From: an uncultured Caldithrix sp.
GTDB lineage: Bacteria > Electryoneota > AABM5-125-24 > Hatepunaeales > Hatepunaeaceae
Length of the DNA: 64,000 bases
Assembly: GCA_964355675.1 (NCBI GenBank)
Contig: CAYHEC010000010.1
Location: 41,160-105,159, forward strand
Reading direction: 5' to 3'
Shown here: positions 7,827 to 38,067 of the stretch, piece after piece
Layout: every line of letters begins with the position of its first letter
How positions within the stretch are numbered: the first letter of the stretch is position 1
The notes under the pieces: model-generated
What the model was told of the DNA's origin: nothing
The model's input: only the letters and a program-made list of their open reading frames with translations
Database searches by the model: none
Translations under genes and position numbers: made by a program

Positions 7827-7837
7827 TCGATAATCTC

Positions 7838-9777: not shown

Positions 9778-9784
9778 GAAAACA

Positions 9785-13702: not shown

Positions 13703-13804
13703 AATTCTTGCATAATTAATCTGGTCACTTTATAGGGGTCTTTTAGGGCGGACAGGAATGTCCGTTCTCCAAGTGAAGTTAAAATATTCTGCCTCCCTTA
13801 ATAA

Positions 13805-19998: not shown

Positions 19999-21149
19999 TA
20001 GTAGGTAAGTTTTTTGTCGATTTTTAATTCGATTGTAGATAGAATATCAGCGATTCGGTCTCCGGCACAGCCATCGCCGTATAGACTATCTGATGGGTAA
20101 TGTCCATGTGCAAGCTGGTGGGCAATTGCTTCTGTAATCTCTTGATGATCGTATCCGACATCCAACACATTCGAAGCGCGATCCCGACCACCCTGCCGAC
20201 TACCAATATTTACCACAGGAACTCCCAAGAAGGAAGATTCCCGTATTCCAACGCTTGAATTGCCAATTAGACAACGAGCTTGAGTGAGTAGATTCAGAAA
20301 ATCTTCAGGTGGTAAATTCTTATAAAAATATATATTACGAATATCATTTTGCTCGCGGAATAATCTCATCCCTTTAGAGATATGGTCAGAACCTGCGTCA
20401 ACATTGGGCCAGAACCAGAAAGTCGGCAGGTCAAGAGTTTTGACAGCCTTAAGGGTTTCGGTAATTTGAAAGAGCCCCTCATCGACTTCGGTCGTCACCG
20501 GATGTTGCATTACAATCAAATATCCGTTTTCAAGATTGAATGTGTGCCCAACTCCGCCATATTTGACCAAAGGGTTAAAATGCGAAATTGGATTCTTCTT
20601 GACTCGATCAGCCAAATCTATGGATGGACAACCGGTAATGAAAATCGTAGTAGGATCTTCCCCCATTTTTTCCACACGAACTTTGGCTTGAGAGTTAGAA
20701 ACGAAGTGAAAATTTGAGAGTTTGGTTACAGCATGCCGGACTTTCTCATCGATAGAGCCTGTTACTTCCCCGCCTTGAACGTGAGCAACGGTGATATTCA
20801 AATAGGATGCGGCTATAGCCGTTGCGATTGTCTCGTATCGATCTGCAACAGTTACAACAATATCAGGCTTGAGATTATCGAAAATCGTAGCAAGCTCAAC
20901 AACGCCTAATCCGGTTGATTTGGCGGCGGTGACAAGATTCTCACCCTCCAAAACCATATAGACAACGGCGTCGGGTGTAAAGCCATCACTCCGAATAACA
21001 TCGATGACAGGTCCATAACGCTCCAGGAGCGCCGAGGCGCCTACCACCAATTGTAATTTTAAATCCGGATGCAACTGCACAGCCTCCAGAACAGTCTTAA
21101 TACGAGAATAGCTTGGGCGCGCGGTTACAACGATACAGATATTTCGGAT
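19998..21149 (-). CDS. UDP-N-acetylglucosamine 2-epimerase, NeuC/WecB family; 5' end extended beyond the track ORF, candidate ATC start
   Basis: 'HVQGGEVTGSIDEKVRHAVTKLS' core motif; in-frame upstream codons encode 'RNICIVVTARPSYSRIKTVLEAV', which is the conserved NeuC/WecB N-terminus, with no ATG/GTG/TTG between the in-frame TAA TAA (21162-21167) and the GTG at 21080. Confidence 0.8.
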   Translation of the reverse strand: MRNICIVVTARPSYSRIKTVLEAVQLHPDLKLQLVVGASALLERYGPVIDVIRSDGFTPDAVVYMVLEGENLVTAAKSTGLGVVELATIFDNLKPDIVVTVADRYETIATAIAASYLNITVAHVQGGEVTGSIDEKVRHAVTKLSNFHFVSNSQAKVRVEKMGEDPTTIFITGCPSIDLADRVKKNPISHFNPLVKYGGVGHTFNLENGYLIVMQHPVTTEVDEGLFQITETLKAVKTLDLPTFWFWPNVDAGSDHISKGMRLFREQNDIRNIYFYKNLPPEDFLNLLTQARCLIGNSSVGIRESSFLGVPVVNIGSRQGGRDRASNVLDVGYDHQEITEAIAHQLAHGHYPSDSLYGDGCAGDRIADILSTIELKIDKKLTY

Positions 21150-22111
21150 AGTAAAATACCTTTATTAAAATTTGATGTTGAAATAAAAGACATTAGCTTT
21201 TCAGCCATAAATCGCTCTGTCGCATGCATCGACTGCCATGTTGCGCCACCGAGATGAGGTGTGATTAACAAATTCTCATTGGTTCTTGCATAATCGATCA
21301 GTATGTTCGAAGTATCAGTATTTGTTCTTTCCTCTGACAATACATCGAGTGCGGCGCCGGCTAAATGACCAGATTTCAGATGCTCAAGAAGTGCCGGATC
21401 ATCAATAATTGCTCCCCGCGAAGTATTTATCAATAATGATCCTTTGGGTAGCCAATCGAATTCTTCGGAACCGACCATCCCGGATGTATCTGCATTTAAA
21501 GGGACATGGATCGAAAGGACATCACAATTCTGAAAAAGCTCCTTCATGGTGTTATAGCGAACAAGACTGGGATGATTAAAATCCTCAATATCAAAATATC
21601 CAACCGACATCTTGAAAGCTTGCCCGAAACTTGCGACTTGTTTCCCCACTCGACCAAGACCAAGGATGCCAAGCCGTTTTCCAGCTAATTCAATTCCTTT
21701 AAAACGATCGCGATCCCACTGACCTTCACAAACAGAATTGAAGGCTTGAGGTATATTTCTCGCAAGTGAAAGTAATAGCGCCCAGGTATGCTCGGCAGTG
21801 GCGCGAATTGAAGAAAGAAACTCGTACTCACCACGAAGACTTAATACGGTAATCCCCAATTGCTTAGCAGAGTCCATGTCGATATGATCGACTCCGGTCG
21901 TTGGTGTGACTATCACTTTTAGTCTATGCCCTGAAGACATAAGTTCTTTATCAATATTGTGTTTCAGTCGTGTAATTAACACTTCGATAGACGGGATTTC
22001 GGTCAATAGCTCTTGTCTGGTCAGCTCTCCTTCACAATATTCACCCAACTTCTTATAAATATTCTGCGCTTCTGATGAGTAGTCAGACGGTTCAAGATTC
22101 CATATTCGCAC
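21125..22111 (-). CDS. D-isomer-specific 2-hydroxyacid dehydrogenase family (NAD-binding)
   Basis: 'GKRLGILGLGRVGKQVA' Rossmann motif and 'NTSRGAIID' / 'AALDV' catalytic region typical of D-2-hydroxyacid dehydrogenases. Confidence 0.8.
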   Translation of the reverse strand: MRIWNLEPSDYSSEAQNIYKKLGEYCEGELTRQELLTEIPSIEVLITRLKHNIDKELMSSGHRLKVIVTPTTGVDHIDMDSAKQLGITVLSLRGEYEFLSSIRATAEHTWALLLSLARNIPQAFNSVCEGQWDRDRFKGIELAGKRLGILGLGRVGKQVASFGQAFKMSVGYFDIEDFNHPSLVRYNTMKELFQNCDVLSIHVPLNADTSGMVGSEEFDWLPKGSLLINTSRGAIIDDPALLEHLKSGHLAGAALDVLSEERTNTDTSNILIDYARTNENLLITPHLGGATWQSMHATERFMAEKLMSFISTSNFNKGILLSEISVSL

Positions 22112-23118
22112 TATGCGAAGTCCTCTTCAGTTACCGGTCTGTTTTCGAGAACATCGTTCTTCAGTCTGCGTCCAATAATGGTTTCCAATTTGTCGAATCG
22201 CAAGCCTGCTCCGGCTTTCTTTAGAGTAACATCGTTCCTGGCTAAAACGCTCCCGGCTTTAAGATCATGAGAAGCAACCAGACTTTTTGCGAATATACTC
22301 CGAGTGGTTGAAAGCTCTTCGGCTATGGTATTTTTGGTCACGGGATTATTCTGGACCGTTTCGATAAACCTCACACCTGCCACCAAGTCTTTCAATTCCG
22401 AGGTAGTTATCGATGAGGAAACATCGGGGCCAAACATTTCTCGAGATAGGGTCACATGCACTTCAATTAGATCGACGCCGAGCATCGCAGAAGCAATCCC
22501 GGGATAGATTGTACCGCTGTGGTCGGAAAGCCCAACTTTACAACCGTAACGATTTTTATACAGCGGTATCAAATTCAATCCGACCTTTTCGGGAGGCGTA
22601 GGATACATCGATGTGCATTGTAATAAAGTAAGTTCATTCCCAAGAGTCTTGATGTACGATACAATTTCGTCTAATTCGGAAAGAGAACTCATTCCAGTAG
22701 AAATCCAAATTGGTAAAGCGGTGTCTGCCATCAATTGAAGTAGTGGCTTATTGGTGACTTCACCTGAGCCAACTTTCCATGCGGCGACACCGATTTTCGA
22801 GAGCATCTCGGCGGCTTCCATGGAAAAGGGAGAGCTTAAGAACAGCAAATTTTGTTCAACAGCATGTGCATTTAGCCCAAGCCACTGCTCCTGAGTGAAT
22901 TCCATTCGGCGCCAGTAATCATATCTGGTAGAGTCCTGATAACTGAATTTGACCCGCCATGGTTCGCTGGGAGTGCTTTCTGCCGCGGCAATATGCGTTT
23001 GAAACTTTATGCCATCAGCCCCGGTCCGTGCGACCGCATCGATGAAGGCATGGGCTTGGCCAAGACTGCCATCGTGGGTTTGGGAAACTTCGGCGATGAT
23101 CAGGATACTGTTTTTCAT
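22111..23118 (-). CDS. N-acetylneuraminate synthase family (NeuB/LegI/PseI-like nonulosonic acid synthase) with C-terminal SAF domain
   Basis: 'ILIIAEVSQTHDGSL' TIM-barrel start, 'GLSDHSG' metal-binding motif, C-terminal SAF/antifreeze-like domain. Confidence 0.9.
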   Translation of the reverse strand: MKNSILIIAEVSQTHDGSLGQAHAFIDAVARTGADGIKFQTHIAAAESTPSEPWRVKFSYQDSTRYDYWRRMEFTQEQWLGLNAHAVEQNLLFLSSPFSMEAAEMLSKIGVAAWKVGSGEVTNKPLLQLMADTALPIWISTGMSSLSELDEIVSYIKTLGNELTLLQCTSMYPTPPEKVGLNLIPLYKNRYGCKVGLSDHSGTIYPGIASAMLGVDLIEVHVTLSREMFGPDVSSSITTSELKDLVAGVRFIETVQNNPVTKNTIAEELSTTRSIFAKSLVASHDLKAGSVLARNDVTLKKAGAGLRFDKLETIIGRRLKNDVLENRPVTEEDFA

Positions 23119-23124: not shown

Positions 23125-24180
23125 TTAATTTAAGCTATCTCTCAAATAACTTTCGAGTGTTTTCTCTATGTCCGGTCGATGCCGTATATTATAGTAATGG
23201 CGCATTTTCAATATCTTCAACTGAAGCGTACTCAAACTACTCAGGATCCGGTAGTGGGTCACAATATCGGCTGAAGCGCCGCTTTGTGCCATGTGGTTTA
23301 TTGCCAATTCAGCAGTCTGGCGAGAGTTCGCTAACAATTCCCATAATGCGATTTTTGCCCAGAACTGTTGACGTTCCCATGAATACTCGGGATTGAGGAT
23401 TTTCCTGATTAGCCACCTGAGCCTTGCTTTCCCTCTTACTTCCTTTATATTCGATACCCATTCCCCAGTTATCGGCTCTTTCTTATAATAGTCAGGAAAG
23501 TACTTTGCCCTTACTCGATTTCCTTCAATCTGTGTAGAGGTCATACTATTTGCTGATAAAGAAACAAGATATAAAGGCTCAGCTATTTCATAACCATTTG
23601 CAACTTGCAATATTCTTATCCAGAGCGGTACATCACCCATAGTAAAATCTGTATCATAACCACCGACGCTCAAAGCTACTTTCCGGTCGAAAATCACTGT
23701 AGCATCACCAAATCGGCGTCTTTTGAAAAATTGTCCAGTTAACATTTCGACACTAAGTTTTCTGGATTTAAATCTATTCTGAAAGACCTCTTCAAAAATA
23801 TGATTAAAAGGGGTTAAATACATAAAGCCAGTACCGACCATTTTATATTCGGGATTTTCTTTTAAGAATGACATTTGTTTTTCGATTCGGAGTGGGAAAC
23901 TAATATCATCAGCATCCATTCGTGCAATCCACTCCGTTGTAGCATTATCCAAACCCCATTGTAAAGCTCCCTGAAATCCAACGGGACCCAATTCAAATAC
24001 TTTTACACGGTGATCTGTTAAGAAAGTGCGGGCAATTTCGGCAGTGTTATCCGATGATCCGTTCTCTAAAACCCATAATTCAAAATCAGAGAAGGTCTGA
24101 TTAAGAATACTCCGAATCGCTGGGCGTATCGTGGATTCGGCATTATGGGCAGGAAGGAAAACTGTTAATGCAGAATTAAT
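23125..24180 (-). CDS. GT2-family glycosyltransferase; conserved N-terminus lies upstream of the track ORF, candidate ATT start
   Basis: Track ORF starts at TTG 23991 inside the domain ('RMDADD' follows); in-frame upstream codons encode 'LTVFLPAHNAESTIRPAIRSILNQTFSDFELWVLENGSSDNTAEI' (GT2 N-terminal motif) back to TAA at 24241-24243, with no ATG/GTG/TTG. Confidence 0.65.
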   Translation of the reverse strand: MNSALTVFLPAHNAESTIRPAIRSILNQTFSDFELWVLENGSSDNTAEIARTFLTDHRVKVFELGPVGFQGALQWGLDNATTEWIARMDADDISFPLRIEKQMSFLKENPEYKMVGTGFMYLTPFNHIFEEVFQNRFKSRKLSVEMLTGQFFKRRRFGDATVIFDRKVALSVGGYDTDFTMGDVPLWIRILQVANGYEIAEPLYLVSLSANSMTSTQIEGNRVRAKYFPDYYKKEPITGEWVSNIKEVRGKARLRWLIRKILNPEYSWERQQFWAKIALWELLANSRQTAELAINHMAQSGASADIVTHYRILSSLSTLQLKILKMRHYYNIRHRPDIEKTLESYLRDSLN

Positions 24181-25389: not shown

Positions 25390-26409
25390 TCATCTCCCAC
25401 GGTAAATGTTTTCGCTTTTTCCGTGTAGCTCCAAATCAAGAATCGCGATATCAGCATCAACCATCAGTTTGACCAGTTGATCAAATCGTATTTTTGGTTC
25501 CCAACCAAAATCTCGCTTTGCTTTCGACGCATCGCCGCATAGCAAATCAACTTCTGTCGGGCGAAAATAATTTGAGTCCACTTCCACGTAGTCCTTCCAA
25601 TCTAAATCGACATGGGAAAATGCCGCGTCCAAGAACTCCCTGATCGTGTGGGTTTCTCCGGTTGCACATATATAGTCGCCCGGATTATCTTGTTGCAGCA
25701 TCATCCACATCGCTTCGACATACTCAGGCGTATAACCCCAATCCCTTTTGGCGTCGAGATTGCCTAAATATAATTTTTTATCAAGTCCAGCCATGATTCG
25801 AGCCAGAGCTCGAGTGATTTTTCGCGTTACAAACGTTGGACCTCGTCGAGGAGACTCGTGGTTGAATAAAATGCCATTGCTGGCAAATATTCCGTATGCT
25901 TCGCGGTAATTCACCGTCATCCAATAGGCGTAAACTTTGGCAATTCCGTAGGGACTGCGTGGATAAAATGGGGTCGTTTCCTTCTGAGGAGTCTCGACCA
26001 CCTTACCAAACATCTCCGAGCTTGAGGCTTGATAAAAACGACATTTTAGGTTTGTCTCACGAATTGCTTCGAGTAGTCGGATAGTTCCCAGAGCGGTGAT
26101 ATCTCCAGTGTATTCAGGGATTTCAAAGCTAACCTTGACATGGCTTTGAGCGCCTAAATGATAGATTTCATCGGGTGAAAAGCGATACAAAAGTTTGATG
26201 AGACTGGTGGAATCGCTTAAATCAGCATAGTGGAGGAATAACTTGACGCCATTGATATGCGGGTCCCGGTAGAGATGATCGATGCGCTGAGTATTGAAGG
26301 TGCTGGCTCGACGGATGATTCCATGAACTTCATATCCCTTGTTGAGGAGGAACTCCGCGAGGTACGATCCGTCCTGTCCAGTGATTCCGGTGATTAAGGC
26401 TGTTTTCAT
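25390..26409 (-). CDS. gmd: GDP-mannose 4,6-dehydratase
   Basis: '[34 protein letters not shown]' is the classic Gmd N-terminus; 339 aa. Confidence 0.95.
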
Positions 26410-26410
26410 A

Positions 26411-27604
26411 TTAAGGCAATGGCTGAGTTTGTGGTTTGTGGTGCAATCCAGAATTTATAATTGCTTGTTTTAACTCTCTCGCAATCATGTCTGGATCGAT
26501 TTCTTGGATACAGCGCGTTGTATCATATTTGCATTTCCAACTGCAGTTGTAACAATCCATTTTATGATTAGCTACCCTATTTATTTTTGGATTACCCCAT
26601 GGGTAGAATCGCCCAAAGTGGCCGCCACCCATTATCCCAACAGTAGGTTTACGCAATGCAACACCGGCATGGAGACCGGCAGATTCGACGCTTAAAACAG
26701 CATCCGAGGATTCTATGGCGCTGATGAATTCCCTTGTTGATGTTTTGCCGCAATGACTAGCGGCAGACTTAACATTAGCACAGGAATCAAGATACTTCAA
26801 TATCTGTTCTCCTATTATTCTGTCCTCTGGAGCCCCTAAGATATTGATGCTGAAGCGAAATTCGCTCAGCTTTTCGAGCACGAGTCTGTACTTCTCTGCA
26901 GGGTAAACTCTTGTTTGAACTGCGGCGCCCGGACAAAGGGTAAGCTTAATGCAATCAGGCTTGGCAGTAATTCTTTCCGTTGCCCATTCCTTATCTGAAC
27001 CATTGAGCCAGAATTCAGGCCAAATGTCAATCGGCTCAACTTGCATGCCCAGCATGTTGAGAAACCTTGCTGTCACCACTAATTCATGAATAAGTTCTTC
27101 ATCTTTTGTCAACTTCAATTGGGTCGAATAATACGGGGCGGCAAACTCATCCTCATGTAATGATTGATTGCAATAATCGCCTGAAATTCCGTATTTGAGC
27201 GGTGATCTAATCGACTTGAGCAACGAATGATGACCGTTTATCTTTCCGGTTGGCGAGCGAACTGGTAAAATAAGTAAATCGCATTTATATTTTCTGTTGA
27301 TACTTCTTCTGATCAGCATTCTCAAAGTATCGCTACGATAGAGCCTCCAAACTCCTTTGGAATTCTGAAACGGCAGAGTCAATAAATCTTCCCATAGAAT
27401 TATCTTATCGACGTATGGACACAATTCAATTAAATTGCGAATTCGTTCTTTAACACATATTGTGATTTCTGCATTTGGATAGAAATTCCGAATGTGCCGT
27501 AATGCACCAGAGAAAAGAATTACGTCGCCAAGGTTATCAGGACGTAATATTAAAATTCGTTTAATTATATGACTATACGATGTTAAATTGGGATTCACAT
27601 GCAT
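26411..27604 (-). CDS. GT9-family glycosyltransferase (heptosyltransferase-like)
   Basis: '[23 protein letters not shown]' N-terminal motif typical of GT9 (RfaF/RfaC-like). Confidence 0.65.
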
Positions 27605-27611
27605 TAATTAA

Positions 27612-29699
27612 TTATCTAAATAGTAGCGAATCTATTTTTTGCGGTATCCTCCGGATACGCTTATATAATTTTCCATGTCTAATAGAACCATATGATAAAC
27701 CAAACCCTATATATTTCTGCGCAGGCACGCCGATCTTGTTGGATATTTTAGCATAATTTAAAATTGCCGTCGCGTGTTCTGCTAAACCTACCGACCACTT
27801 TCCGCCATCCCATTTAAGGTCTGTGCGGCAACCTTTTTGTTCAAATGCATTTGCCAGCTTGGGTTCGCGATTAATGTAGTACGAGATAACATATTCGAAA
27901 CTTTCCGGGTTCAGCCAAATATTGGGAGGTACATTACTCAAATCATTTAGTTCCTTGGCTAATTTCTCAGTAATTTGCCAATCTGATATAAACCGATAAT
28001 AACTCCTGCCTTTATTGTTATCGAGAATGTCGCGCTTTTTCTGCAAAGGTATTGTGCTTAAAATCGACTCATTTACAGTCGCAACCAATTGCAAGGCGGA
28101 AATAATTGATGTCTTAGTTAATTCCTCCAGTATGCGGTATTTGTTTTCGTCCATCGTAAACCATTCTTGCCTCAAGTTATCCACGAGAGCCGACGAATGT
28201 TCATGTTTATTTTCTACCGAAATACCAGACCGTTCAGCAAGTGAATAAGTGTATTTAAGACTATTTAACATACAAAGAAGGACTCGAATCCGGACGGGAC
28301 TACTATACGCAATCCAAATTATGTCATGCGGTATTTTTACTAATAAGTAATCTACCAACATACCGAAAAAGGCGCCTTGCGAAACTGACGACGATGAAAC
28401 ATCGCCTAAGTCTATTCCAGAAAGAAGCCTATAATTAAATATAGGAAATAGCTTTGGGAGTATTCCAATAGCACCTTCCGTGCAGACGTATGGTGGATGC
28501 GTCATGAGTAATCGAACCCATTGAGGAAAGTTTTCAGGCTTGTAATTTTGCCAGGTCAATTTCACATCGTCTGGGTACACAATCAAATAATCAAGGTCGG
28601 AAATGCCAGGTGCACCAACTTGTCCAATTTGATATATTGCAATCGGTTTTGGGGCAAGTGAGTTCCAGAATTTCGTTACAAGTTCAGTCGTTTCTTGATA
28701 ACGTTGGTCTTGAATTTGAAGAGGTAGATCAGTTACCGGGCGAGAGAAAACACGTGGACCAGGTTCCTTGGGAGCGACATCTCGTATTTTTGTTTGCATG
28801 CTATGGAGTAATGCAAGTACACGTCGCGGGAAATCTTCTCCTAAAACATTTTGAACATCGATGACTTGCTTACTATTTCGAGAATTCCGTCTTGCAATCT
28901 TTTGTAATAACGATGGACGATGAATTTGGAGCGCAAACCAAACTAATATCCGTGATGGCTTATGTCGCGGCCCAAGAGTTGCCCTTAAATTTGTCGCTAA
29001 TACTATTGGTTCCCATTCTTCTTTCGTGAAGTATTTTTCTGCGATAGGGAATGTGTCCCTTTTGTATCTAAATTCTCCTGTCATACGTTGGAGAAATAAG
29101 GCTGGTAAAATCATCAGATTCCCCAAGCAGTGTTCCACATCGTAATAATCTCTCATCATAAATGGTTTCGAACTCCAAGCATTGAAGTAACCAGAAAACA
29201 TTACAAGCATGGAATCTGTAATTTCGTTGGAAGGTACGACCATCACTTCGATTGGATCATTGGATTCAAAAAGATCAACGCCATAATTAAAGAGTATCAG
29301 TGGAAATTTCGCTTCTGGATAAGAGGACAACTCGCTTTGCATTAGATAATAGGGTTCATGATGCATAAAAGGATCGAAGGCATAAGTTAAGGCAAGAATC
29401 TCGCTACGAAGCTTATTATACTTACTCTGCATTCGCGTATCTGTTAAAGTCGAATCCTTCACAATAAACGTCAAATCTAAGTCGCTAAATCCTTCAACAT
29501 CATCAAGTGTCGCGACACTTCCATGAATAATCGCCCGTAAAAACAGATCTTTGTTTTGGTTTGCCAATTTATGCAACTTCCATACGGGCCAATATTTTGA
29601 CTGGCTGCCACCTCTGTCAAGCCATGATTGATAATTTGTGCCAGATGGAACTTGATGGATCATAATCTGTTTATCAGACTTATTCAACTTGCTTGCCAT
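27612..29699 (-). CDS. Uncharacterised protein with two Pol-beta-like nucleotidyltransferase-fold motifs
   Basis: 695 aa; 'HGSVATLDDVEGFSDLDLTFIV' and 'IGQVGAPGISDLDYLIVYPDD' both fit the G[GS]-x(9-13)-D-h-D-h nucleotidyltransferase signature; no closer family recognised. Confidence 0.4.
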   Translation of the reverse strand: MASKLNKSDKQIMIHQVPSGTNYQSWLDRGGSQSKYWPVWKLHKLANQNKDLFLRAIIHGSVATLDDVEGFSDLDLTFIVKDSTLTDTRMQSKYNKLRSEILALTYAFDPFMHHEPYYLMQSELSSYPEAKFPLILFNYGVDLFESNDPIEVMVVPSNEITDSMLVMFSGYFNAWSSKPFMMRDYYDVEHCLGNLMILPALFLQRMTGEFRYKRDTFPIAEKYFTKEEWEPIVLATNLRATLGPRHKPSRILVWFALQIHRPSLLQKIARRNSRNSKQVIDVQNVLGEDFPRRVLALLHSMQTKIRDVAPKEPGPRVFSRPVTDLPLQIQDQRYQETTELVTKFWNSLAPKPIAIYQIGQVGAPGISDLDYLIVYPDDVKLTWQNYKPENFPQWVRLLMTHPPYVCTEGAIGILPKLFPIFNYRLLSGIDLGDVSSSSVSQGAFFGMLVDYLLVKIPHDIIWIAYSSPVRIRVLLCMLNSLKYTYSLAERSGISVENKHEHSSALVDNLRQEWFTMDENKYRILEELTKTSIISALQLVATVNESILSTIPLQKKRDILDNNKGRSYYRFISDWQITEKLAKELNDLSNVPPNIWLNPESFEYVISYYINREPKLANAFEQKGCRTDLKWDGGKWSVGLAEHATAILNYAKISNKIGVPAQKYIGFGLSYGSIRHGKLYKRIRRIPQKIDSLLFR

Positions 29700-30921
29700 A
29701 TTTTAAAATGAGCCACATCTTAATTATGAACTTTTCAATAATGAGTGGGAAGTAAGTCAAAACAATAAAGCGCAAAGCCACACTTTCAGGCATATATCGA
29801 CGTGCCTGACGCAGTTCGTCTCTGGCAAGGGTTTGATAGCCAGCGAGTCTTAATGCATTACCCCACTTCAAATGGAATTTAGACGCACTCACCTTAGCTT
29901 CTTGAAGCTCACTCTCTGGAAGTTGAACAGGTTGACGACCTCGAACGGGGTTTCTTTCTAATTGCTCAAAGATCGAATTCAATCGAATTAGCCAGGTGTG
30001 ATCTTTCAGACATCTTTCTCTGCCGCGTCTGGCAATTTGCTCTCTTTCTTCGTCATGCGATAGATAGTATTCGATCTTTCGGCGAGCCTCATCTGGATCT
30101 CTGAAGCAAACTACTTCCTGATCCAACACAAAACAATCTTCCAATCCGTCGGTGTATTCGGTAAGCAAAAATCCACCGCACATACAAACCTCAAAGACAC
30201 GTGCTTTGAGTGTCTTGATATTTTTGTTATGCACATCTTTTGCAAAATCCAGGTTAATTTTGCTGACATTAAAAACCCTGACCATCTCATCAAAAGGCAG
30301 GAAGCGATTCCAACCTCCGCCAAACTTTTCGATCTTCAGATCCGTCGTTTCTATGGCTGTCATAAACGCCTCGCGGTCAGCTATCTTGGTCCCAACAAAG
30401 GAAACATCATATTCATAGGTAACATTAATCTTCTTAAATAATTCTGGAGATGCGGCGGGGGGAACATAAAAATAGGGGATTTTCAACGACTGGTATTTTT
30501 CTATCACTGATGGTGCTACGGTAACACAATAATCCAGATGAGGGATATAGAGCTTGGTAAAACTATCAAAAGCGGAGTGATCGTCCCAAAACCAACAAAT
30601 TACGATGCAACCTTGCGACCTTATAAAATCAAAAGTCTCTTCCATAACTTCAAATCCCCAGCGTTGGGCGAGCCACAAGACGTATTTAGGTCGCTCCCTT
30701 TTAACCAAATCAATAATTTCTTGGTTGGTTTTCTTCATCCCAACATCGAAATATCTTTTGAACCAATCGTAGCGAACAAATTTTGAAAATACTTGAGGTA
30801 GCGCTTCTGAAAAAGGTCGGTCCTTATCAAAACGCACCAACCCTATAATGCCGTTTTTTCCGGCTAAAGGGTGCTGGCTATAATCGCTGTTGGTCAGCAA
30901 TAATATCTTAGCGTCGATCAT
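29680..30921 (-). CDS. CgeB-like glycosyltransferase (Glyco_trans_1_2 / DUF3880-type)
   Basis: 'KARVFEVCMCGGFLLTEYTDGLEDCF' matches the CgeB-family C-terminal motif. Confidence 0.55.
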   Translation of the reverse strand: MIDAKILLLTNSDYSQHPLAGKNGIIGLVRFDKDRPFSEALPQVFSKFVRYDWFKRYFDVGMKKTNQEIIDLVKRERPKYVLWLAQRWGFEVMEETFDFIRSQGCIVICWFWDDHSAFDSFTKLYIPHLDYCVTVAPSVIEKYQSLKIPYFYVPPAASPELFKKINVTYEYDVSFVGTKIADREAFMTAIETTDLKIEKFGGGWNRFLPFDEMVRVFNVSKINLDFAKDVHNKNIKTLKARVFEVCMCGGFLLTEYTDGLEDCFVLDQEVVCFRDPDEARRKIEYYLSHDEEREQIARRGRERCLKDHTWLIRLNSIFEQLERNPVRGRQPVQLPESELQEAKVSASKFHLKWGNALRLAGYQTLARDELRQARRYMPESVALRFIVLTYFPLIIEKFIIKMWLILKYGKQVE

Positions 30922-30969
30922 ACGGCGTCGCCTTTAACAGGGATTTCAGGTCGTGCTGGTTCTGTGTCC

Positions 30970-32124
30970 TTAGAAGAAATTATCCATAATGCCTTCAAGT
31001 ATGGTAAGCCTCCCATCGTTGACGGACTGATTGTTGCCTATATAGAAGGCGTTGGTGTGTAGGAAATCTGCGTTTTTAAATCCTTCGGCGTTATAGTGTT
31101 TCTTCAGGAAAGGTTGGCGCAGGAGGTTTCCGGCAACGAGTGGGCGGGACTCGATGCCAGCATCGGCAATAATCTTCTGAAACCTTTTCTTTTGTTCACA
31201 GTCCTTAAACAGAAATTGAAGAACAAAAGAGGATATCCCTTCGGATTCCGCTACAATAAGGGCGTCGCTATATTTCTTACATATCTCAACAAAACGGCTA
31301 TAGTTGCGATTCCTTATTTCAATGAATTGGTCTAATTTGTCAAGTTGTGTTAGACCCAAAACCGCGTGGAGTTCAGTGTTTCGAACATTGAACCCGTCGG
31401 TAAGAAATAGAAATTGAAAATCAATGTACGGATACTTAGTTTTGATGTCGTCATGGTATTCAATCGGCAGTTCGCGAGCCAGTCCATGCGACCTTTTCAA
31501 CAACAACAACCGGTATAATTCTTCGTTGTTGGTGCAGACCATGCCGCCTTCGACTGTAGTCATGTGGTGACCCCAGTAAAAGCTGAAGGTGCTGCCTATT
31601 CCGAAGTTCCCAACCTTTACCTTGTCAATAGTGGCTCCATTTGCTTCACAGCAATCCTCCATGATCAAAATGCCACGATCGCCGATGATTTTCTTGATGC
31701 GGGAAATGTTAGCTGGAAACCCGATCAGGTGAGTAATAAATATCGCTTTTGTTCTGTCGGTGATGCATTTCTGAAGCTGATCGTAATCAAAGGAGAAATC
31801 CTGAAGATTGACGTCAACAAAGACAGGTTTCAACCCGCTCTGCATTACCGGGGTAACATTGGTTGTCCATGTAACGGCGGGTACGACAACTTCATCGCCA
31901 TCATTCAAGCCATACATCTCCTTCAAAGCATTGATTAATACCAGATTGGCTGAACTGCCCGAATTGACAAACACGCTATACTTACATCCCTGCCATTTGG
32001 AATAGCGGTTCTCAAATTCTTTTACTTTTGAAAATTGAGTAAATCTGGTTGTTTCCCTGATAAAGGAGACAAGAGTGCTAAGGTCATCTTGACTCAATAT
32101 ATCTTCTTGTAGTTTCCAGAGCAA
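30970..32124 (-). CDS. DegT-family PLP/PMP-dependent sugar 3-dehydratase (ColD / E1-like)
   Basis: DegT-family motifs 'VNSGSSANLVL', 'GDEVVVPAVTWTTN'; the usual Schiff-base Lys is replaced by His in 'GSTFSFYWGHHMTTVEGG', the hallmark of ColD/E1 3-dehydratases. Confidence 0.75.
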   Translation of the reverse strand: MLWKLQEDILSQDDLSTLVSFIRETTRFTQFSKVKEFENRYSKWQGCKYSVFVNSGSSANLVLINALKEMYGLNDGDEVVVPAVTWTTNVTPVMQSGLKPVFVDVNLQDFSFDYDQLQKCITDRTKAIFITHLIGFPANISRIKKIIGDRGILIMEDCCEANGATIDKVKVGNFGIGSTFSFYWGHHMTTVEGGMVCTNNEELYRLLLLKRSHGLARELPIEYHDDIKTKYPYIDFQFLFLTDGFNVRNTELHAVLGLTQLDKLDQFIEIRNRNYSRFVEICKKYSDALIVAESEGISSFVLQFLFKDCEQKKRFQKIIADAGIESRPLVAGNLLRQPFLKKHYNAEGFKNADFLHTNAFYIGNNQSVNDGRLTILEGIMDNFF

Positions 32125-32186
32125 TTTATAAATTCCCCATGGTTGTTTTGCCCGATTTGATCAGTATTCCAGTTTGAAAGTCCATT

Positions 32187-33137
32187 TCAAACCCTGATAT
32201 ATGGGTAATTGGCTACAAACCAATTAATGGTATTTTCAATTCCTTGTTCTATCTTAGTGTATTCGAAATTAGGAAGATATTTCGCCAATTTGGAAGTGTC
32301 GGCAGGTTTGCGGTATTGTCCATCAGACTTGGATGTATCCCAAATCACCTTACCCATAAATCCGATTTTTTCGACTATAGTTTCAATCAGATATTTTATC
32401 GTTACTTCTTCTCCAGTGGAGAAATTAATTGGGGTTTCTTCTTCGTAATATTTCAGTGCCCAAACGGCCAATTTGGCGGCGTCATCAGATAACAAAAACT
32501 CCCTTAATGGCGTCCCGCTCCCCCAGACAATAAAGTCCGTATTATTCTTTTTGGCTAAATAACACTTGTGAATTAGTGATGGAATAGCATGTCCATCTTC
32601 CAGATTCCAGTTATCATTTGGCCCGTACATGTTTGTTGGTATGGCAGTAATGAAATTGCAACCCCATTCGTTCCGGTATGCCCGACTCTGCACATCTAAC
32701 ATCCTTTTTGCATAGGAGTATCCATAATTAGACGGGTGGGGTTGACCGTCATGGATCGCCTCTTCTTTTAACGGGAAGGCAATATTATCGGGATAAACAC
32801 ATGTCGATAGAAAAGACATTAATTTATTTACCTTGATTAGGCGAGAGCATTCTAATACATTAGTATTTATCAATATATTGCTTCTATAGAATTCACCGAG
32901 ATGTGCCATATTTCCGCCCAATCCACCGACTCGAGCCGCCAAATGAATCACGCCTTCGGGATGGATATCCTTAATTATTTTTAAGGTTTCATCAAATTTC
33001 GTAAGGTCGGCATCCTTATGTGTGATAAATACAAAATTCGGGAGATTTAACCTCTGGATGGCGTGACCAACCAATCCATCTCCACCGGTCACTAAAATTC
33101 TACTCATTGATTGCTCCCTGATTGAGATTCCACTCAA
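32187..33137 (-). CDS. GDP-L-fucose synthase-like 3,5-epimerase/4-reductase (Fcl / ColC family)
   Basis: 'RILVTGGDGLVGHAI', 'LAARVGG', 'PTNMYGPNDNW', 'VWGSGTPLREFL' closely match the Fcl family. Confidence 0.8.
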   Translation of the reverse strand: MSGISIREQSMSRILVTGGDGLVGHAIQRLNLPNFVFITHKDADLTKFDETLKIIKDIHPEGVIHLAARVGGLGGNMAHLGEFYRSNILINTNVLECSRLIKVNKLMSFLSTCVYPDNIAFPLKEEAIHDGQPHPSNYGYSYAKRMLDVQSRAYRNEWGCNFITAIPTNMYGPNDNWNLEDGHAIPSLIHKCYLAKKNNTDFIVWGSGTPLREFLLSDDAAKLAVWALKYYEEETPINFSTGEEVTIKYLIETIVEKIGFMGKVIWDTSKSDGQYRKPADTSKLAKYLPNFEYTKIEQGIENTINWFVANYPYIRV

Positions 33138-34116
33138 TCGTTCGTTGTAAACCGTCTTTAAAAGAAATAAACTGCTTTATTTTAAATTCATTACACACTT
33201 TGCTTACGTCAAGCTTTACGATGCCCGGGGCATCCTTCATCATCTTTCCCGTGCCAGCTTCGCACGTTGCTCCATATACTTCAGCAATTAACTGGGCCAT
33301 TTCGTAAATAGATACGGTTTCTGTTGCCCCGACGTTATATAGTAACTCTTTTCCTTCAAGCATTATCTTGAACATCATAAATAGTGCGTCTGAAATATAA
33401 CAATACGAACGAAGATCTTTTCCTTCATCCATTAGTTTGATGTGCTTATCAATAAAGGCTTTTTTCATAAAGTTGCCCATCGCCCGTTCATCATGGATTG
33501 AAAGACCAGGTCCATAGACTAAGGCTACGCGTGCGATCTTGGCATCTACACCAAACTTTCGATTATAGATAAAGCACAGCGCTTCCCCGACTTTTTTAGA
33601 CTCAATATAAGAGGCTCTGCCACTTGAAGTCAGGGAATTTCCTGGATATGATTCCTTCGTCGGTATTTCATTCGGAGGCGGGTTTCCATAAACTTCACTG
33701 GTGCTAAGGAGAAGAAATTTTGCGTTATTTGCCTTGCTGATATCTAATAGGTCTTTGGTAGCGTTTACATTCAGTGAGATAGTTTTTAGTTCATCCCCCA
33801 AGAACATTTTTGGCCCGCTATAACAGGCGGAATGAATTACGAAATCAACAGGATGTGAAAATGAGAAGGGTTGTGAAAGGTCATGAGTGATATAATTAAA
33901 TCTATCATCCTTCCATACCGGAGGATTCTTACTGACACAATGTGCCATAATATTCGCATTATAATATTCATTAGCAGTACTTAACAAGTTCACTATGTAA
34001 TTTCCAATAAGTCCGTTACTGCCTGTTACGAGAAAACGTTTATCGAACAGTGCTTCGAAGTTGCCAAAATTCGTTAGCAGGTTTCGGCAATCTTCTCTAA
34101 TCAAGGTTGAATTCAT
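33100..34116 (-). CDS. NAD-dependent epimerase/dehydratase (UDP-glucuronate decarboxylase-like SDR)
   Basis: 'FLVTGSNGLIGNYI' Rossmann motif and 'YIESKKVGE' YxxxK motif; start taken at internal Met 34116, giving an ATGA stop/start overlap with the upstream gene. Confidence 0.7.
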   Translation of the reverse strand: MNSTLIREDCRNLLTNFGNFEALFDKRFLVTGSNGLIGNYIVNLLSTANEYYNANIMAHCVSKNPPVWKDDRFNYITHDLSQPFSFSHPVDFVIHSACYSGPKMFLGDELKTISLNVNATKDLLDISKANNAKFLLLSTSEVYGNPPPNEIPTKESYPGNSLTSSGRASYIESKKVGEALCFIYNRKFGVDAKIARVALVYGPGLSIHDERAMGNFMKKAFIDKHIKLMDEGKDLRSYCYISDALFMMFKIMLEGKELLYNVGATETVSIYEMAQLIAEVYGATCEAGTGKMMKDAPGIVKLDVSKVCNEFKIKQFISFKDGLQRTIEWNLNQGAINE

Positions 34117-35006
34117 ATTAGCCGTTCGATTTTGTTTTTTATTCCTGGCGCATCCAAGCCCAAGGCAGAACAATGCTGCTCATAGCTTCCATAGTTTGTC
34201 AGGAATTTGTCTTCTATCCCCAAACGAAACTGCCGGACATTTTCAAGACCTTCAAGCGCTCTGGACACTTCATCACCAAGTCCCCCGATAATGTTATGTT
34301 CTTCGATGGTTAGCACCTTGCCAGTTTTAATAGCGCTTTGCCTTATAAGCTCAATGTCCAGTGGTTTGATCGTATGAATGTAAATAATTTCTGCATCCAT
34401 TAATTTCGCTACTGTGATAACATCTTTAAGTTGAGGCCCCGTAACAATGATCGAAAGAGATTTACCTTCTTTAATCTTAATGCCTTCGCCAACCTTTATC
34501 TGGATCGAATCAAATTGAACGCCATGTTTTACCGCGGGTAATCTAAAATAGGTTGGATTGCAATTATTGTAAGTTTGTTTAAAAAGTTCATCGAACTCAA
34601 GCTCGGAGGTTGGATATACAATTTGCATCCCAGACAAGGGTTTTAAAATGGCAAAATCCTCATAACAGTGATGAGTACATCCGAGCGAAGCGTAATCAAA
34701 TGCTGAACCGACGCTAATTATGCTGGCGCCTAACTTTTGATAGCAAAGATCTACTTTGATTTGTTCATAACATCTTTCGAGAATGAAAGGCGCAATGCTG
34801 TGCACTACAGGATACATGCCAGTTGCCGATAAACCAGCCGCCATGCTGATAATTGTTTGCTCGCAAATTCCCAAGTTGTAAAATCGTTCGGGATGTTTAT
34901 TTTGAAAATTCCGTAATAGAAATACACTGATATCGCCCATCAATACGACTAATTTTTCGTCAAAATCGCCGACAGCTTCAATTGTCCGAGAAAATTGATT
35001 TCTCAC
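34113..35006 (-). CDS. Transketolase, C-terminal (pyrimidine-binding) subunit of a split transketolase
   Basis: Pyrimidine-binding and C-terminal regions recognisable; ~300-aa size typical of split TktB-type subunits. Confidence 0.8.
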   Translation of the reverse strand: MRNQFSRTIEAVGDFDEKLVVLMGDISVFLLRNFQNKHPERFYNLGICEQTIISMAAGLSATGMYPVVHSIAPFILERCYEQIKVDLCYQKLGASIISVGSAFDYASLGCTHHCYEDFAILKPLSGMQIVYPTSELEFDELFKQTYNNCNPTYFRLPAVKHGVQFDSIQIKVGEGIKIKEGKSLSIIVTGPQLKDVITVAKLMDAEIIYIHTIKPLDIELIRQSAIKTGKVLTIEEHNIIGGLGDEVSRALEGLENVRQFRLGIEDKFLTNYGSYEQHCSALGLDAPGIKNKIERLI

Positions 35007-35827
35007 TCCAATTCCTTCAGGATGACCTTTAATTCTTCCTCAGTTGGGCTCCTGTGGTGCCAAGTGAAGCCGTTGTTTTCCAAAGTCTTCGATCCTTTCC
35101 CTTTTACCGTGCGAGCGATTACCATTGAAGGTCTATCCGTTTTACAGTTTGAAATAGTTCTAAAGGTTTGTTTCAGCTCATTGATATCATGGCCGTTGAC
35201 ATCATAGACTTTCCAGCCAAACGCTGACCATTTTTCGACCGGGTTAGTAATTGGCAAGCACCTGCTGGTTGATTCATTCAAATCTAAAATTCCAATAAAA
35301 TTATTCAATTTACAATTTGCGGCAACCATAGCGGTTTCCCAGATAGTTCCTTCGTTACACTCTCCATCACCGATCAGAGAATAAACATAATTGGGTTTAC
35401 ATTTTATTTTCATGCTTAACGCGATACCGGCAGCGAATGGAAAACCGTGTCCGAGGGATCCAGTGGAAGCCTCGACTCCCGGAACTTTGTTTCTATCGGG
35501 GTGTCCGCCGAGTGGGCTGTCATATTTACCGAAAGTGATAAGATCATTCTCGGAAATATATCCTGCCTTTTGTAATACCGCATACAAAGCAACGGAAGCA
35601 TGACCTTTACTGAGAATAAAATAATCTCTATCCTCCCAATCCGGGTTTTCCGGGTGATATTTCAGCACATCCTTATAGAGAACAGTCAGTATATCCACGA
35701 TCGAGAAAGAGCTGGGGATATGACCTTCTTTTGCTTCAAAACACAATTTCAGAATTGATTTTCTGATTTCGATTGGATTTATCATTTTAGAGCAATATTT
35801 GGAAAACCGTGAGCGTTTACGGACCAT
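35003..35827 (-). CDS. Transketolase, N-terminal TPP-binding subunit
   Basis: 'GHASVALYAVL' and TPP-binding 'GDGECNEG' motif; overlaps partner subunit by 4 nt. Confidence 0.85.
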   Translation of the reverse strand: MVRKRSRFSKYCSKMINPIEIRKSILKLCFEAKEGHIPSSFSIVDILTVLYKDVLKYHPENPDWEDRDYFILSKGHASVALYAVLQKAGYISENDLITFGKYDSPLGGHPDRNKVPGVEASTGSLGHGFPFAAGIALSMKIKCKPNYVYSLIGDGECNEGTIWETAMVAANCKLNNFIGILDLNESTSRCLPITNPVEKWSAFGWKVYDVNGHDINELKQTFRTISNCKTDRPSMVIARTVKGKGSKTLENNGFTWHHRSPTEEELKVILKELE

Positions 35828-35839: not shown

Positions 35840-36657
35840 TTAAGATAATTTGCTTTTAAATCTTTCCATTTCAATAAATATTGAATCTCTACCATTATCA
35901 TAAACCATTAAATAATTTAAGCTTGATAAGTAATTATTGATATTATGATAGTTATAATGGACCGTCTCCACAATCAGAAGACTTGGACGGTATTTTCCCC
36001 AATCATTACTCTTCAATACTTCTAATTCATATCCTTCAACATCTATTGACATAAAATCAATAGTGTCAGATGGTTTCAAGTATTTTTCTAAAATATTAGA
36101 TAAAGGTGCCACTTCGACTTCTATTGTTTTTATGGCGGAAGCTTTATGCCAGATAAATGATTTTCTGCCATTTTATTATTGAAAGAAGATCCGTTACTAA
36201 ATCCTTCTATCATATAAAAATCAGCTTTGCCCAACATTGGACCAATGCCAATGTTCAGATTAATATCTTCTGGCCTAGCCTCAACTAGTTTATTAAAAGG
36301 ACTTAATTGTGGTTCAATGTTAATTCCTCGCCAGCCTTTTAAGTAGAACCTAGTAGCATGAGAAGGAAACTCGTTGGGATCATTGGCTCCTATCTCAACA
36401 TAATACCCATGACTCTTAAAATCTAGGAGAAAATCTATCAACAGATCCTCATGATCATAACCATCATAAGATCCGAAAACCTTATGTATGAATTTTTTGC
36501 CTCTCCCAGAAAAGTCATTATAGTTCGGATCATTGCATTCCTCAGCGTTTTTTGCCAGAATGTTTTTTGCCAGAATAGACTTTATTTTCCTCAAGATTCT
36601 GACAATTAGAGGTGGTATAAAATCTAATAGTGTAATGTGTTTGTTAAAGATCTTCAT
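35840..36657 (-). pseudogene. FkbM-family methyltransferase interrupted by a frameshift (two ORFs 36130..36657 and 35840..36112)
   Basis: Upstream ORF carries 'YYVEIGANDPNEF' (SAM-binding), downstream ORF carries 'IDFMSIDVEGYELEVL' (FkbM C-terminal motif); the two are in different frames, junction near the A5 run around 36127-36131. Confidence 0.55.
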
Positions 36658-36792: not shown

Positions 36793-38067
36793 TTATTTTA
36801 AACTTAAGCTCCAATTTGTCCCACCCAGAACACAGCTAAAATGCCTCGCTACTGCGCCATAGCGTGCCATTGTGGAACCGGTTTCTATGATGTTAAAACT
36901 TGAAACATTTTTACGTGTATCAATGCTTAGCTTGTTTGGATTGTGTGCAGAAATATAAACAGTATACATGTCAGGGACAAGAAAGTTCTCCCTTATCCGA
37001 ATGGTTGCTTGATACAAACCGGGCTTAAGTTCCACAAACGCCTTATTATTTCCATCAGATAAACTACTAAATAATACATTAACATCATTAGAATTAGATA
37101 ACATAAAAGTGATTTCAGTATCTGTAGTGTGGCGCAATACTCTGAATTCAAGTCCAATCATAAACGGATTCAGAACATCTATATCCGCGCTCAGATTACC
37201 TTGATGGTCAGTTATCCAAACTTTTGTAAAGGATACGTTGGCGTCCAATTGAGGAACCAACGTAACAACTTTAGTTGTTTCTACTCTTTTATCAGTTATA
37301 TACTGGCTTATAATATCAGATACTACTCCAGTACCAGATATTCTGCCATTATCAAGTAATATCGCTTGAGTACACAATGACCGTACCGCTCCCATATTAT
37401 GACTCACAAACAGCACCGTCCGACCCTCGTGCGCGACTTCTCCCATTTTCCCAAGGCATTTTTTCTGAAACTCAACATCGCCAACGGCGAGTACTTCGTC
37501 AATAACAAGTATCTCCGGGTCCAGATGCGCCGCCACCGCGAATGCCAGGCGCACCTTCATGCCCGACGAATACCGCTTGACAGGAGTATCGATAAATTGC
37601 TCAACGCCGGAAAAGTCAACAATCTCATCGAACTTTCTGGTCACTTCAGCTTTTGTCATTCCAAGGATCGCGCCATTCAGAAATACATTCTCCCTACCCG
37701 TCAATTCCGGGTGAAATCCAGTCCCGACCTCAAGCAAAGCCCCGATTCGTCCTTTTATCTTGATCTCACCTGAGGTTGGCGCAGTTATATGTGAGATGAT
37801 TTTTAATAATGTTGACTTACCAGAACCATTCTTGCCGATAATGCCGAGTACCTCACCTTGATTAACTTCAAAGTTTATATCGCGCAACGCCCAGATGTAT
37901 TCGCCGCTCTTGTTGCCATGATCCATCTCGCCGATTTTTAGCAGTGGGTCAGGTTTGCCTCTCGCTCTCGCCCACCAGCGACTAAGGTCTCCTGACAATG
38001 TACCTCCCCCGATAAGTCCCAATTTATAGAACTTAGAGAGGTTTTCGACCTTGATAACGACACTCAT
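36793..38067 (-). CDS. ABC transporter ATP-binding protein for glycan export (Wzt/TagH/KpsT-like) with C-terminal extra domain
   Basis: Walker A 'GKNGSGKST', signature 'YSSGMKVRLAFA', Walker B 'ILVIDEV'; ~180-aa C-terminal extension as in Wzt carbohydrate-binding domains. Confidence 0.9.
   Translation of the reverse strand: MSVVIKVENLSKFYKLGLIGGGTLSGDLSRWWARARGKPDPLLKIGEMDHGNKSGEYIWALRDINFEVNQGEVLGIIGKNGSGKSTLLKIISHITAPTSGEIKIKGRIGALLEVGTGFHPELTGRENVFLNGAILGMTKAEVTRKFDEIVDFSGVEQFIDTPVKRYSSGMKVRLAFAVAAHLDPEILVIDEVLAVGDVEFQKKCLGKMGEVAHEGRTVLFVSHNMGAVRSLCTQAILLDNGRISGTGVVSDIISQYITDKRVETTKVVTLVPQLDANVSFTKVWITDHQGNLSADIDVLNPFMIGLEFRVLRHTTDTEITFMLSNSNDVNVLFSSLSDGNNKAFVELKPGLYQATIRIRENFLVPDMYTVYISAHNPNKLSIDTRKNVSSFNIIETGSTMARYGAVARHFSCVLGGTNWSLSLK

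Follow-up and report, generated by a model that had tools for sequence, protein, structure and literature searches.

3,6-Dideoxyhexoses are strongly antigenic surface sugars, of which the biosynthesis is, to our knowledge, known almost entirely from a few enteric pathogens. The closest described system is the GDP-L-colitose pathway of Escherichia coli O55/O111 and Yersinia pseudotuberculosis, in which Gmd, ColD (WbdK) and ColC (WbdJ) act. A group of genes resembling this pathway was studied in a stretch of 64,000 nucleotides from an uncultured Caldithrix sp. (GenBank assembly GCA_964355675.1, contig CAYHEC010000010.1, positions 41,160 to 105,159), the whole of which is referred to as the window. 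For this locus an original prediction, made from the sequence alone, had proposed a GDP-linked, colitose-type 3,6-dideoxyhexose, produced by Gmd, a ColD-like dehydratase with histidine at the position of the catalytic lysine and an adjacent epimerase/reductase of the Fcl family. Taken alone, this set of three genes is of a known kind and unremarkable. Judged by gene content and order, the window genes can be assigned to a widespread five-gene cassette, which also includes a split transketolase (TK)-like enzyme and an extra reductase of the short-chain dehydrogenase/reductase (SDR) type.

With the colitose pathway, the window locus shares the start from Gmd, the histidine at the lysine position of the dehydratase, the lack of an iron-sulfur cluster, identical residues at the aligned cofactor and GDP positions of ColD and an adjacent Fcl-family epimerase/reductase. 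The replacement of lysine by histidine as a hallmark and the mechanism of ColD have been described (PMC8987622; bioRxiv 2021.09.04.459008). Unlike in the colitose pathway, the dehydratase of the window belongs to a separate clade, the partner enzyme is of the human FX type (in most relatives of the bacterial Fcl type) and not of the ColC type, and a UXS-like SDR and a split transketolase are added. The window locus also has neither manB nor manC, and its export genes are Wzm/Wzt as opposed to Wzx/Wzy in the E. coli cluster. A second related system is the GDP-3,6-dideoxyheptose pathway of Campylobacter jejuni HS:5/HS:11, with a 4,6-dehydratase, a ColD-like C3-dehydratase, a C5-epimerase and a C4-reductase. 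It has in common with the window a GDP-linked 4-keto-6-deoxy substrate, a C3-dehydratase of the ColD type depending on pyridoxal 5'-phosphate (PLP), and SDR-type C-4 reductases which set the final stereochemistry. It differs in starting from a heptose, in having a separate C-5 epimerase and in having no enzyme dependent on thiamine diphosphate (ThDP). The C. jejuni dehydratases are moreover 62-67% identical to E. coli ColD (PMC10440746), versus 37% for the window protein.

Branched dideoxy sugars are represented by yersiniose A. In its pathway, which starts from CDP-glucose, E1/E3 produce CDP-3,6-dideoxy-4-keto-glucose, to which the ThDP enzyme YerE attaches a C2 unit taken from pyruvate, and YerF reduces the branch (PMC9306805). 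The logic proposed for the window would be the same by analogy, with a His-type 3-dehydratase, a ThDP-dependent C2 branch at C-4 and NAD(P)H-dependent reduction of the side chain. The window would however use GDP instead of CDP and a ColD-type dehydratase without iron-sulfur cluster and without E3, and its ThDP enzyme is of the transketolase superfamily and built of two subunits, while YerE is classified as a single chain within the decarboxylase (DC) superfamily (PMC12247030). The window enzyme is thus not a member of the YerE family, but may work like YerE. Two-subunit ThDP enzymes of the alpha-keto-acid-dehydrogenase type carry out comparable chemistry in actinomycete antibiotics, and for miharamycin and amipurimycin the transfer of a hydroxyacetyl group onto a keto-sugar by split-gene transketolases has been suggested but never demonstrated; the 13 split-TK candidates of a 2025 review all come from secondary-metabolite clusters of Streptomyces (PMC12247030). 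As in the window, the miharamycin and amipurimycin systems have a two-gene transketolase beside keto-sugar-forming enzymes, with a function inferred from context. The genes of the window type, in contrast, are located in surface-polysaccharide loci of environmental Gram-negatives and on one contig labelled Nanoarchaeota, and they are likened to the Streptomyces genes by gene context, not by sequence.

The genes of the pathway and of the cassette were located as follows:

25390..26409, minus strand: Gmd, GDP-mannose 4,6-dehydratase, source of GDP-4-keto-6-deoxy-D-mannose (TIGR01472, PF16363)
30970..32124, minus strand: predicted ColD-type nucleotide-sugar 3-dehydratase dependent on pyridoxamine 5'-phosphate (PMP), of a divergent clade, 384 aa (PF01041; PDB match 2gms)
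31543..31584, minus strand: active-site motif SFYWGHHMTTVEGG of the ColD-like protein, by direct translation, with the codon of His186 at 31567-31569
32187..33107, minus strand (open reading frame, ORF, open back to 33137): Fcl/FX-family GDP-sugar epimerase/4-reductase, candidate ColC equivalent (FX match)
33100..34116, minus strand: extended SDR, UXS-like, putative ketoreductase (PF01370, 107 bits; human UXS1, 127 bits)
34113..35006, minus strand: split transketolase-like ThDP enzyme, C-terminal subunit (TK-C) with Pyr and C domains (PF02779, PF02780)
35003..35827, minus strand: split transketolase-like enzyme, N-terminal subunit (TK-N) with the PP domain (PF00456, 146 bits)

The TK-N, TK-C, SDR and Fcl-like genes are joined by overlaps of 4-8 nt. 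TK-C overlaps both of its neighbours by 4 nt and the stop codon of the SDR gene overlaps the start of the Fcl-like gene by 8 nt, the likely true start of the latter being the ATG at 33107. Gmd is located 4.56 kb downstream of the ColD-like gene, close to the 5 kb originally given, and the Fcl-family gene adjoins the ColD-like gene as had been stated. The region first delimited for the pathway, 25390-33137, fits real genes, but it ends a gene too early and leaves out the SDR and split transketolase (33100-35827), which are co-transcribed.

The ColD-like ORF has the fold-type I scaffold of the DegT/DnrJ/EryC1 sugar aminotransferases (PF01041, DegT_DnrJ_EryC1, 226 bits, residues 21-368). Its best matches in the PDB were the four entries of E. 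coli O55 ColD (2gms, 253 bits, E 5e-74), with a weaker match to E1 (3bcx, 159 bits). His186, the first histidine of a GHH motif, aligns with His188 of ColD at the usual position of the Schiff-base lysine, and the entries of His188 mutants, 3b8x (N), 2r0t (K) and 3gr9 (S187N/H188K), align at the same position. Since the ColD entries in the PDB differ only at residues 187 and 188, the alignment places His186 at His188 directly. The GHH motif was invariant across 27 homologues with 64-80% identity and is therefore not a sequencing accident; the N-terminus and 120 columns of the protein were invariant in these homologues as well. Residues D157, E160, S181, R217, N246 and R327 are invariant in the clade and identical to the aligned D159, E162, S183, R219, N248 and R331 of ColD, which we take to be the contacts with the PMP cofactor and GDP. 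The cysteine-rich segment of E1 with the [2Fe-2S] ligands, DCYCAPGCDNTC, aligns with a cysteine-free stretch of the window protein, and no E3-like reductase partner was found among the ORFs of the cluster. The comparison supports an assignment of the window protein as a ColD-type, His-for-Lys PLP/PMP 3-dehydratase and not as an aminotransferase. The histidine claimed at the PLP-lysine position is thus encoded where it was expected, and alignment with ColD and E1 revealed no lysine at the Schiff-base position. Two other identities were rejected, that of an E1-type dehydratase (CDP, Fe-S) because the cysteine insert is missing, and that of an ordinary aminotransferase because the lysine is replaced by histidine.

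Gmd is a true member of its family. It scored 535 bits against the equivalog TIGR01472 (cut-off 415) and 487 bits against PF16363, and is 56% identical to Gmd of E. coli K-12. The Fcl-like protein scored 330 bits to human GDP-L-fucose synthase FX (4e5y) versus 165 bits to E. coli Fcl, and 235 bits against the bacterial Fcl equivalog NF047922, which has a cut-off of 500. Its segments LSTCVYP, YSYAKRM and EDGHAIP align with the S-T-C, YxxxK and DGH motifs of human FX. The catalytic set is intact, with what we presume, following the GMER literature, to be a Ser/Tyr/Lys triad and a Cys/His pair for epimerisation. The presence of an Fcl-family epimerase/reductase next to the ColD-like gene was hereby confirmed. 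By sequence alone it may be a fucose synthase as well as a colitose synthase.

Natural fusions of a ColD-like protein with an Fcl-family protein were found in loci L036 (from 8001), L044/L045 (L045 from 2134) and L050 (from 8001). These are three distinct proteins of 697-701 aa, 67-85% mutually identical, with the junction '...MEDFFGDKMHKSSRIYISGH...'. As Rosetta-stone evidence, the fusions indicate that the Fcl-type enzyme acts with the dehydratase and presumably after it, in favour of the main point of the original prediction. They argue, with moderate support, for an Fcl-type enzyme that would work on the ColD product, as ColC does. In the same loci the split transketolase is encoded by the other strand and represents a different TK subtype. 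Across 43 related loci, the partner scored higher against E. coli Fcl than against ColC in 41, and is thus of the bacterial Fcl type; the FX type was only found in the window, L015 and L052. The exchange of the two types at a fixed position in the cassette looks like non-orthologous displacement.

The extent of the cassette was assessed by aligning the 27 homologues of the ColD-like protein and using this alignment to fetch 80 metagenome loci, on which the window proteins were mapped. Counts of partner genes are given for the 26 well-flanked loci, with at least 5 kb upstream and at least 3 kb downstream of the ColD-like gene. The SDR was present in 24/26 loci, an Fcl-family gene in 23/26, both TK subunits in 15/26 and Gmd, within 8 kb and often directly adjacent, in 10/26. 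The SDR, usually located directly upstream of the ColD-like gene, is conserved with it more tightly than any other partner. The order TKN-TKC-SDR-Fcl-ColD was found again in many metagenomes of unrelated origin and in metagenome-assembled genomes at NCBI, including a Prosthecobacter (Verrucomicrobiota) genome, and the order Wzm-Wzt-...-TK-SDR-ColD was also found in L016, L029 and L095. With a constant extra SDR and a frequent split transketolase without the phosphate-binding arginine discussed below, the divergent ColD clade represents a form of the 3,6-dideoxyhexose pathways of which no description was found in the literature searched. A literature search on transketolase genes in O-antigen and polysaccharide clusters found nothing relevant.

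The SDR carries the motifs STSEVYG and YxxxK and has human UXS1, a UDP-glucuronate decarboxylase, as best PDB match (127 bits); it is considered a putative ketoreductase. In the ThDP enzyme, the Transketolase_N, Transket_pyr and Transketolase_C domains are distributed over two polypeptides. For both subunits, the best structural match was the split transketolase of Carboxydothermus hydrogenoformans (TK-N 6yak, 226 bits; TK-C 6yaj, 144 bits). TK-N keeps the GDGE...N ThDP motif and four catalytic histidines, the equivalents of H37, H77, H110 and H258 of human TK, which are also kept in the main cassette clade. TK-C keeps the first substrate-channel arginine, the cofactor-activating glutamate (GICEQ) and the histidine in CTHH. 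At the position of the phosphate-binding arginine (R520 in E. coli, R474 in human TK, a numbering and a role in binding the substrate phosphate that we assume from the transketolase literature), the RLGR of C. hydrogenoformans is changed to RLPA in the window and to RL[ST]E in the cassette clade. This arginine was absent from all of the commonest motif variants among 120 TK homologues, while the signature LGCTHHCY was common to the homologues. The two subunits also remained under the NCBIfam cut-off for transketolase, with 244 and 138 bits versus 488. The loss of the phosphate-binding arginine and the missed curated cut-offs make a housekeeping role unlikely. A housekeeping transketolase of the pentose-phosphate pathway was judged unlikely on the same ground of an arginine lost across the subfamily, and because the genes recur in the cassette and overlap their neighbours.

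Our best explanation, which is somewhat favoured, combines the Gmd, ColD-type, Fcl-type and TK/SDR proteins into a deoxygenation cassette for a GDP-sugar, which sits inside a long, single-strand, Wzm/Wzt-dependent polysaccharide operon. In a first, well supported step, Gmd would convert GDP-mannose to GDP-4-keto-6-deoxy-D-mannose. In a second step, which is also well supported, the ColD-type enzyme would form a PMP-ketimine at C-4, with His186 as the base expelling the 3-OH. It would then release GDP-4-keto-3,6-dideoxy-D-mannose, with PMP regenerated from glutamate, and would need neither an iron-sulfur cluster nor a reductase partner. These two steps are proposed with high confidence on strong evidence from sequence, and the GDP-4-keto-3,6-dideoxyhexose intermediate is very likely. 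In a third step, moderately supported by context and fusions, the Fcl/FX-family enzyme would take the role of ColC, epimerising C-5 and reducing C-4 to yield a GDP-L-colitose-type sugar; the chances that the Fcl-like enzyme makes a colitose-type product are evenly balanced. A fourth step, inferred from the conserved gene context, has the split transketolase-like enzyme and the UXS-like SDR acting on the same 4-keto intermediate. By analogy with YerE and YerF, C-4 would receive a two-carbon unit (hydroxyacetyl or acetyl) from the ThDP enzyme, and the carbonyl of the side chain so formed would be reduced by the SDR, resulting in a 4-C-branched 3,6-dideoxyhexose beside or in place of colitose. 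Branching of the GDP-keto-sugar by TK and SDR is put forward tentatively. No firmer is the generalisation that the two would form a widespread module, branching C-4 of GDP-4-keto-3,6-dideoxyhexose and, by extension, other nucleotide keto-sugars. The original prediction was thus partly supported. The window has genes for enzymes of a GDP-linked, colitose-type 3,6-dideoxy sugar, but because of the conserved SDR and split TK, which are translationally coupled, plain colitose is not necessarily the end product.

Several observations weigh against this explanation, the first group of which concerns the distance to ColD. The ColD-like protein is only 37% identical to ColD of the E. coli O111-type cluster (L099), while the characterised ColDs of E. 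coli, Yersinia and Campylobacter are mutually 62-67% identical (PMC10440746). In the tree, all 80 metagenome relatives formed one clade, separated from E. coli ColD by a long branch. The similarity is therefore not at the level of orthologues, and the window protein is best placed in a sister clade of ColD. The position of ColD Ser187 is moreover occupied by a glycine (Gly185), although Ser187 is reportedly not conserved among dehydratases (bioRxiv 2021.09.04.459008). No curated NCBIfam model was passed by the protein, the best being RfbH with 241 bits against a cut-off of 423, and its relatives are labelled by annotators as CDP-sugar E1 enzymes. The low identity, the long branch, the missed NCBIfam models and the E1 labels would suit a His-containing DegT clade that resembles ColD at the family level only and acts on another nucleotide sugar or performs another PLP/PMP reaction. 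We consider this very improbable, as ColD is clearly the best structural relative (by 253 bits to 159 for E1), the window protein is identical to it at the aligned contacts with cofactor and GDP, many loci have Gmd next to the ColD-like gene and the Fe-S cysteines are absent.

A second point against the explanation is the kinship of the Fcl-like protein, for which identity is 49% with human FX and 31% each with Fcl and with ColC (L099 13514-14437) of E. coli. It is thus much closer to a true GDP-fucose synthase, human FX, than to E. coli ColC and could simply make GDP-fucose. This leads to the alternative of two sugars from one Gmd product, in which the FX-like enzyme would yield GDP-L-fucose, and ColD with the SDR, as a C-4 ketoreductase without epimerisation, would yield a GDP-3,6-dideoxyhexose of the D-series. 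An arrangement of this kind is suggested by L043, L056 and L066, where the Fcl-family gene adjoins Gmd like a standard fucose pair and SDR-ColD forms a separate adjacent pair, and by the SDR-ColD pairs without Fcl in 8/38 loci, six of which are also without TK. The making of several 3,6-dideoxyheptose stereoisomers in C. jejuni merely by swapping C-4 reductases also fits. The ColD::Fcl fusions are hard to explain, however, if Fcl competes with ColD for the substrate instead of following it, and the role of the TK is left unexplained. The production of two such sugars is therefore considered improbable.

The remaining points against the explanation concern the transketolase. TK is missing from about 40% of the well-flanked loci. 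In the ColD tree, loci with and without TK are mixed, and in the SDR tree they separate only partly. A reverse test was made with four members of the TK subfamily with about 55% identity. All four were located in nucleotide-sugar-type loci with SDRs, C-methyltransferases, DegT proteins and radical SAM enzymes, but only one (L103) was near a His-type dehydratase, the other three loci having none. The TK subfamily is thus not exclusive to ColD loci and may have a different or broader role. C-4 branching would furthermore chemically preclude the C-4 reduction by the Fcl-type enzyme, so that the two routes had to be assumed to be parallel branches. A frequently absent TK, a TK subfamily that also occurs without ColD, the ColD hallmarks, the fusions and the Fcl-family gene near ColD in most loci would all agree with plain GDP-L-colitose, made by Gmd, the ColD-like and the Fcl-like enzyme (as ColC) only, while the SDR and split TK would be used for a different sugar or substituent in that polysaccharide. 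Against this speaks that the SDR is a more constant partner of ColD than Fcl is and usually adjoins it, whereas an SDR of this kind is lacking from the characterised three-enzyme pathway (E. coli O111-type cluster). The TKN, TKC, SDR and Fcl genes are further coupled by their overlaps in the window, and the TK-SDR module recurs near a second, unrelated type of His-dehydratase in L103. Plain colitose as the sole product is accordingly thought rather unlikely.

L103, a contig labelled Nanoarchaeota, has the genes TKN-TKC-SDR in this order (7228-9960), the SDR sharing 41% identity with that of the window, and no gene of the ColD clade is present. At 4 kb from TK-SDR, a DegT protein of 438 aa (12864-14180) has the segment SFYAAHHIFMGEGG with histidine at the lysine position. 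It has the length of E1 but not the Fe-S cysteine insert, and belongs to a different clade of His-type dehydratases. In L101 a DegT-family protein located beside the TK pair (5305-6375) has serine at the position of the Schiff-base lysine ('YSLGMVSLISIGYGG'), and is neither of the aminotransferase type nor of the His-dehydratase type.

The clade of the ColD-like protein is very large, with thousands of members in Bacteroidota, Verrucomicrobiota, the candidate phyla radiation (CPR) and other phyla. Of 8000 candidates scored, 7500 reached E<=1e-20 versus the ColD-like protein, and all 120 matches listed were 64-100% identical to it. Source names of the relatives include Bacteroidetes (for a match of 67% identity), Verrucomicrobiota, Prosthecobacter and Candidatus Moranbacteria (CPR). 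An earlier scan of genome contigs with the single protein had yielded only distant relatives of 29-39% identity and was superseded by the alignment-based metagenome scan. The usual label of the relatives in the Joint Genome Institute (JGI) annotation is CDP-sugar E1 enzyme, which is probably wrong because the Fe-S cysteines are absent in the window protein and the RfbH cut-off was missed. The statement that such a pathway would be unusual outside Proteobacteria does not hold at gene level, the more so as a published genome survey of monosaccharide pathways treats the L-colitose pathway as broadly distributed across phyla. A search of the accessible literature for chemical evidence of colitose in these phyla found none. 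ColD and ColC have also been annotated in a verrucomicrobial endosymbiont, Ca. Organicella extenuata, the tiny genome of which reportedly keeps ColD, ColC and transketolase among very few glycan genes (PMC8204192). These genes may be the same cassette, misread as pentose-phosphate or heptose metabolism.

The interest of the locus lies in the cassette and not in the colitose-type pathway as first claimed. The window places ColD-type chemistry in a very large clade from the environment, which has conserved partner genes of its own. If branching is true, Bacteroidota, Verrucomicrobiota, CPR-type bacteria and DPANN archaea would have a class of GDP-linked 4-C-branched dideoxy sugars in their surface glycans, made by the first transketolase-type sugar-branching system outside the secondary metabolism of Streptomyces, a functional analogue of YerE/YerF. 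Branched sugars with a tertiary alcohol would thereby be reached by a new route, biocatalysis would gain a ThDP family accepting ketone acceptors, an open need according to the 2025 review (PMC12247030), and many automatic annotations as 'CDP-sugar E1' and 'transketolase' would be corrected. If it is not true, the locus is one more predicted colitose or fucose cluster.

The cluster forms a single-strand (minus) operon with a Wzm/Wzt exporter at 38959-36793, and extends down past 3732. Further genes of this operon that touch on the cassette are:

26411..27604, minus strand: GT9-family glycosyltransferase, between the cassette and Gmd (PF01075, 55 bits)
29680..30921, minus strand: glycosyltransferase-like protein (Glyco_trans_1_2/DUF3880), candidate transferase for the cassette sugar (PF13524, 114 bits)
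36793-38067, minus strand: Wzt of the ABC exporter (ABC_tran and Wzt_C, precomputed annotation of the identical metagenome contig, ENA ERZ4201064)
38108-38959, minus strand: Wzm of the ABC exporter, at the operon head (PF01061)

As context, the Wzm/Wzt pair points to an ABC-transporter-dependent polysaccharide. A homologue of the Glyco_trans_1_2 protein was found just downstream of ColD in L016, L020, L027, L028, L030, L046, L051, L078 and L095, and a GT9 gene follows directly after ColD in the Prosthecobacter locus L097. Between the two glycosyltransferase genes of the window, an ORF of 695 aa (27612-29699, minus strand) has a nucleotidyltransferase-like motif, GSVATLDDVEGFSDLDL; it had no match in Pfam or NCBIfam, and none of the 80 related loci had a homologue covering more than 50% of the query. 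Directly upstream of TK-N, the sequence of an FkbM-type methyltransferase (Methyltransf_21) is divided between two ORFs that are not in the same frame (35840-36112 and 36130-36657, minus strand), which may reflect a pseudogene, a programmed shift or an assembly error. In L095, L101 and L104, the cassette or TK is found together with an intact FkbM gene.

No match was found in an Rfam scan of the window, nor did the window contain an rRNA, a tRNA-type marker or a housekeeping gene. At 17438-23118 (minus strand), genes of the nonulosonic acid type are located, encoding NeuB, a NeuC-like 2-epimerase, a CMP-transferase-like cytidylyltransferase and AsnB. The genes of NeuB and the epimerase are separated by that of an unusual D-2-hydroxyacid dehydrogenase (21125-22111); should it be a glycerate or hydroxypyruvate dehydrogenase, it could provide a donor for a transketolase, which is pure speculation. 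For an ORF of 288 aa (23125-23991, minus strand), similarity to the GT2 profile is limited to the C-terminal part of the profile (positions 65-118), and a non-coding gap of about 260 nt, to 24251, comes next. It may be a truncated glycosyltransferase gene. On the plus strand, a protein of 2829 aa (40419-48908) carries HYDIN/VesB-like Ig, LVIVD and Por_Secre_tail domains, the last for sorting by the type IX secretion system (T9SS). This sorting domain is the sole hint within the window at an FCB/Bacteroidota origin, to which the 67% match labelled Bacteroidetes can be added. Two further DegT-family genes are present in the window (56009-57238 and 6729-7826, both on the minus strand), one of them DesI-like (TIGR04427, 505 bits, cut-off 650), and several other modified sugars are therefore encoded besides the one studied here.

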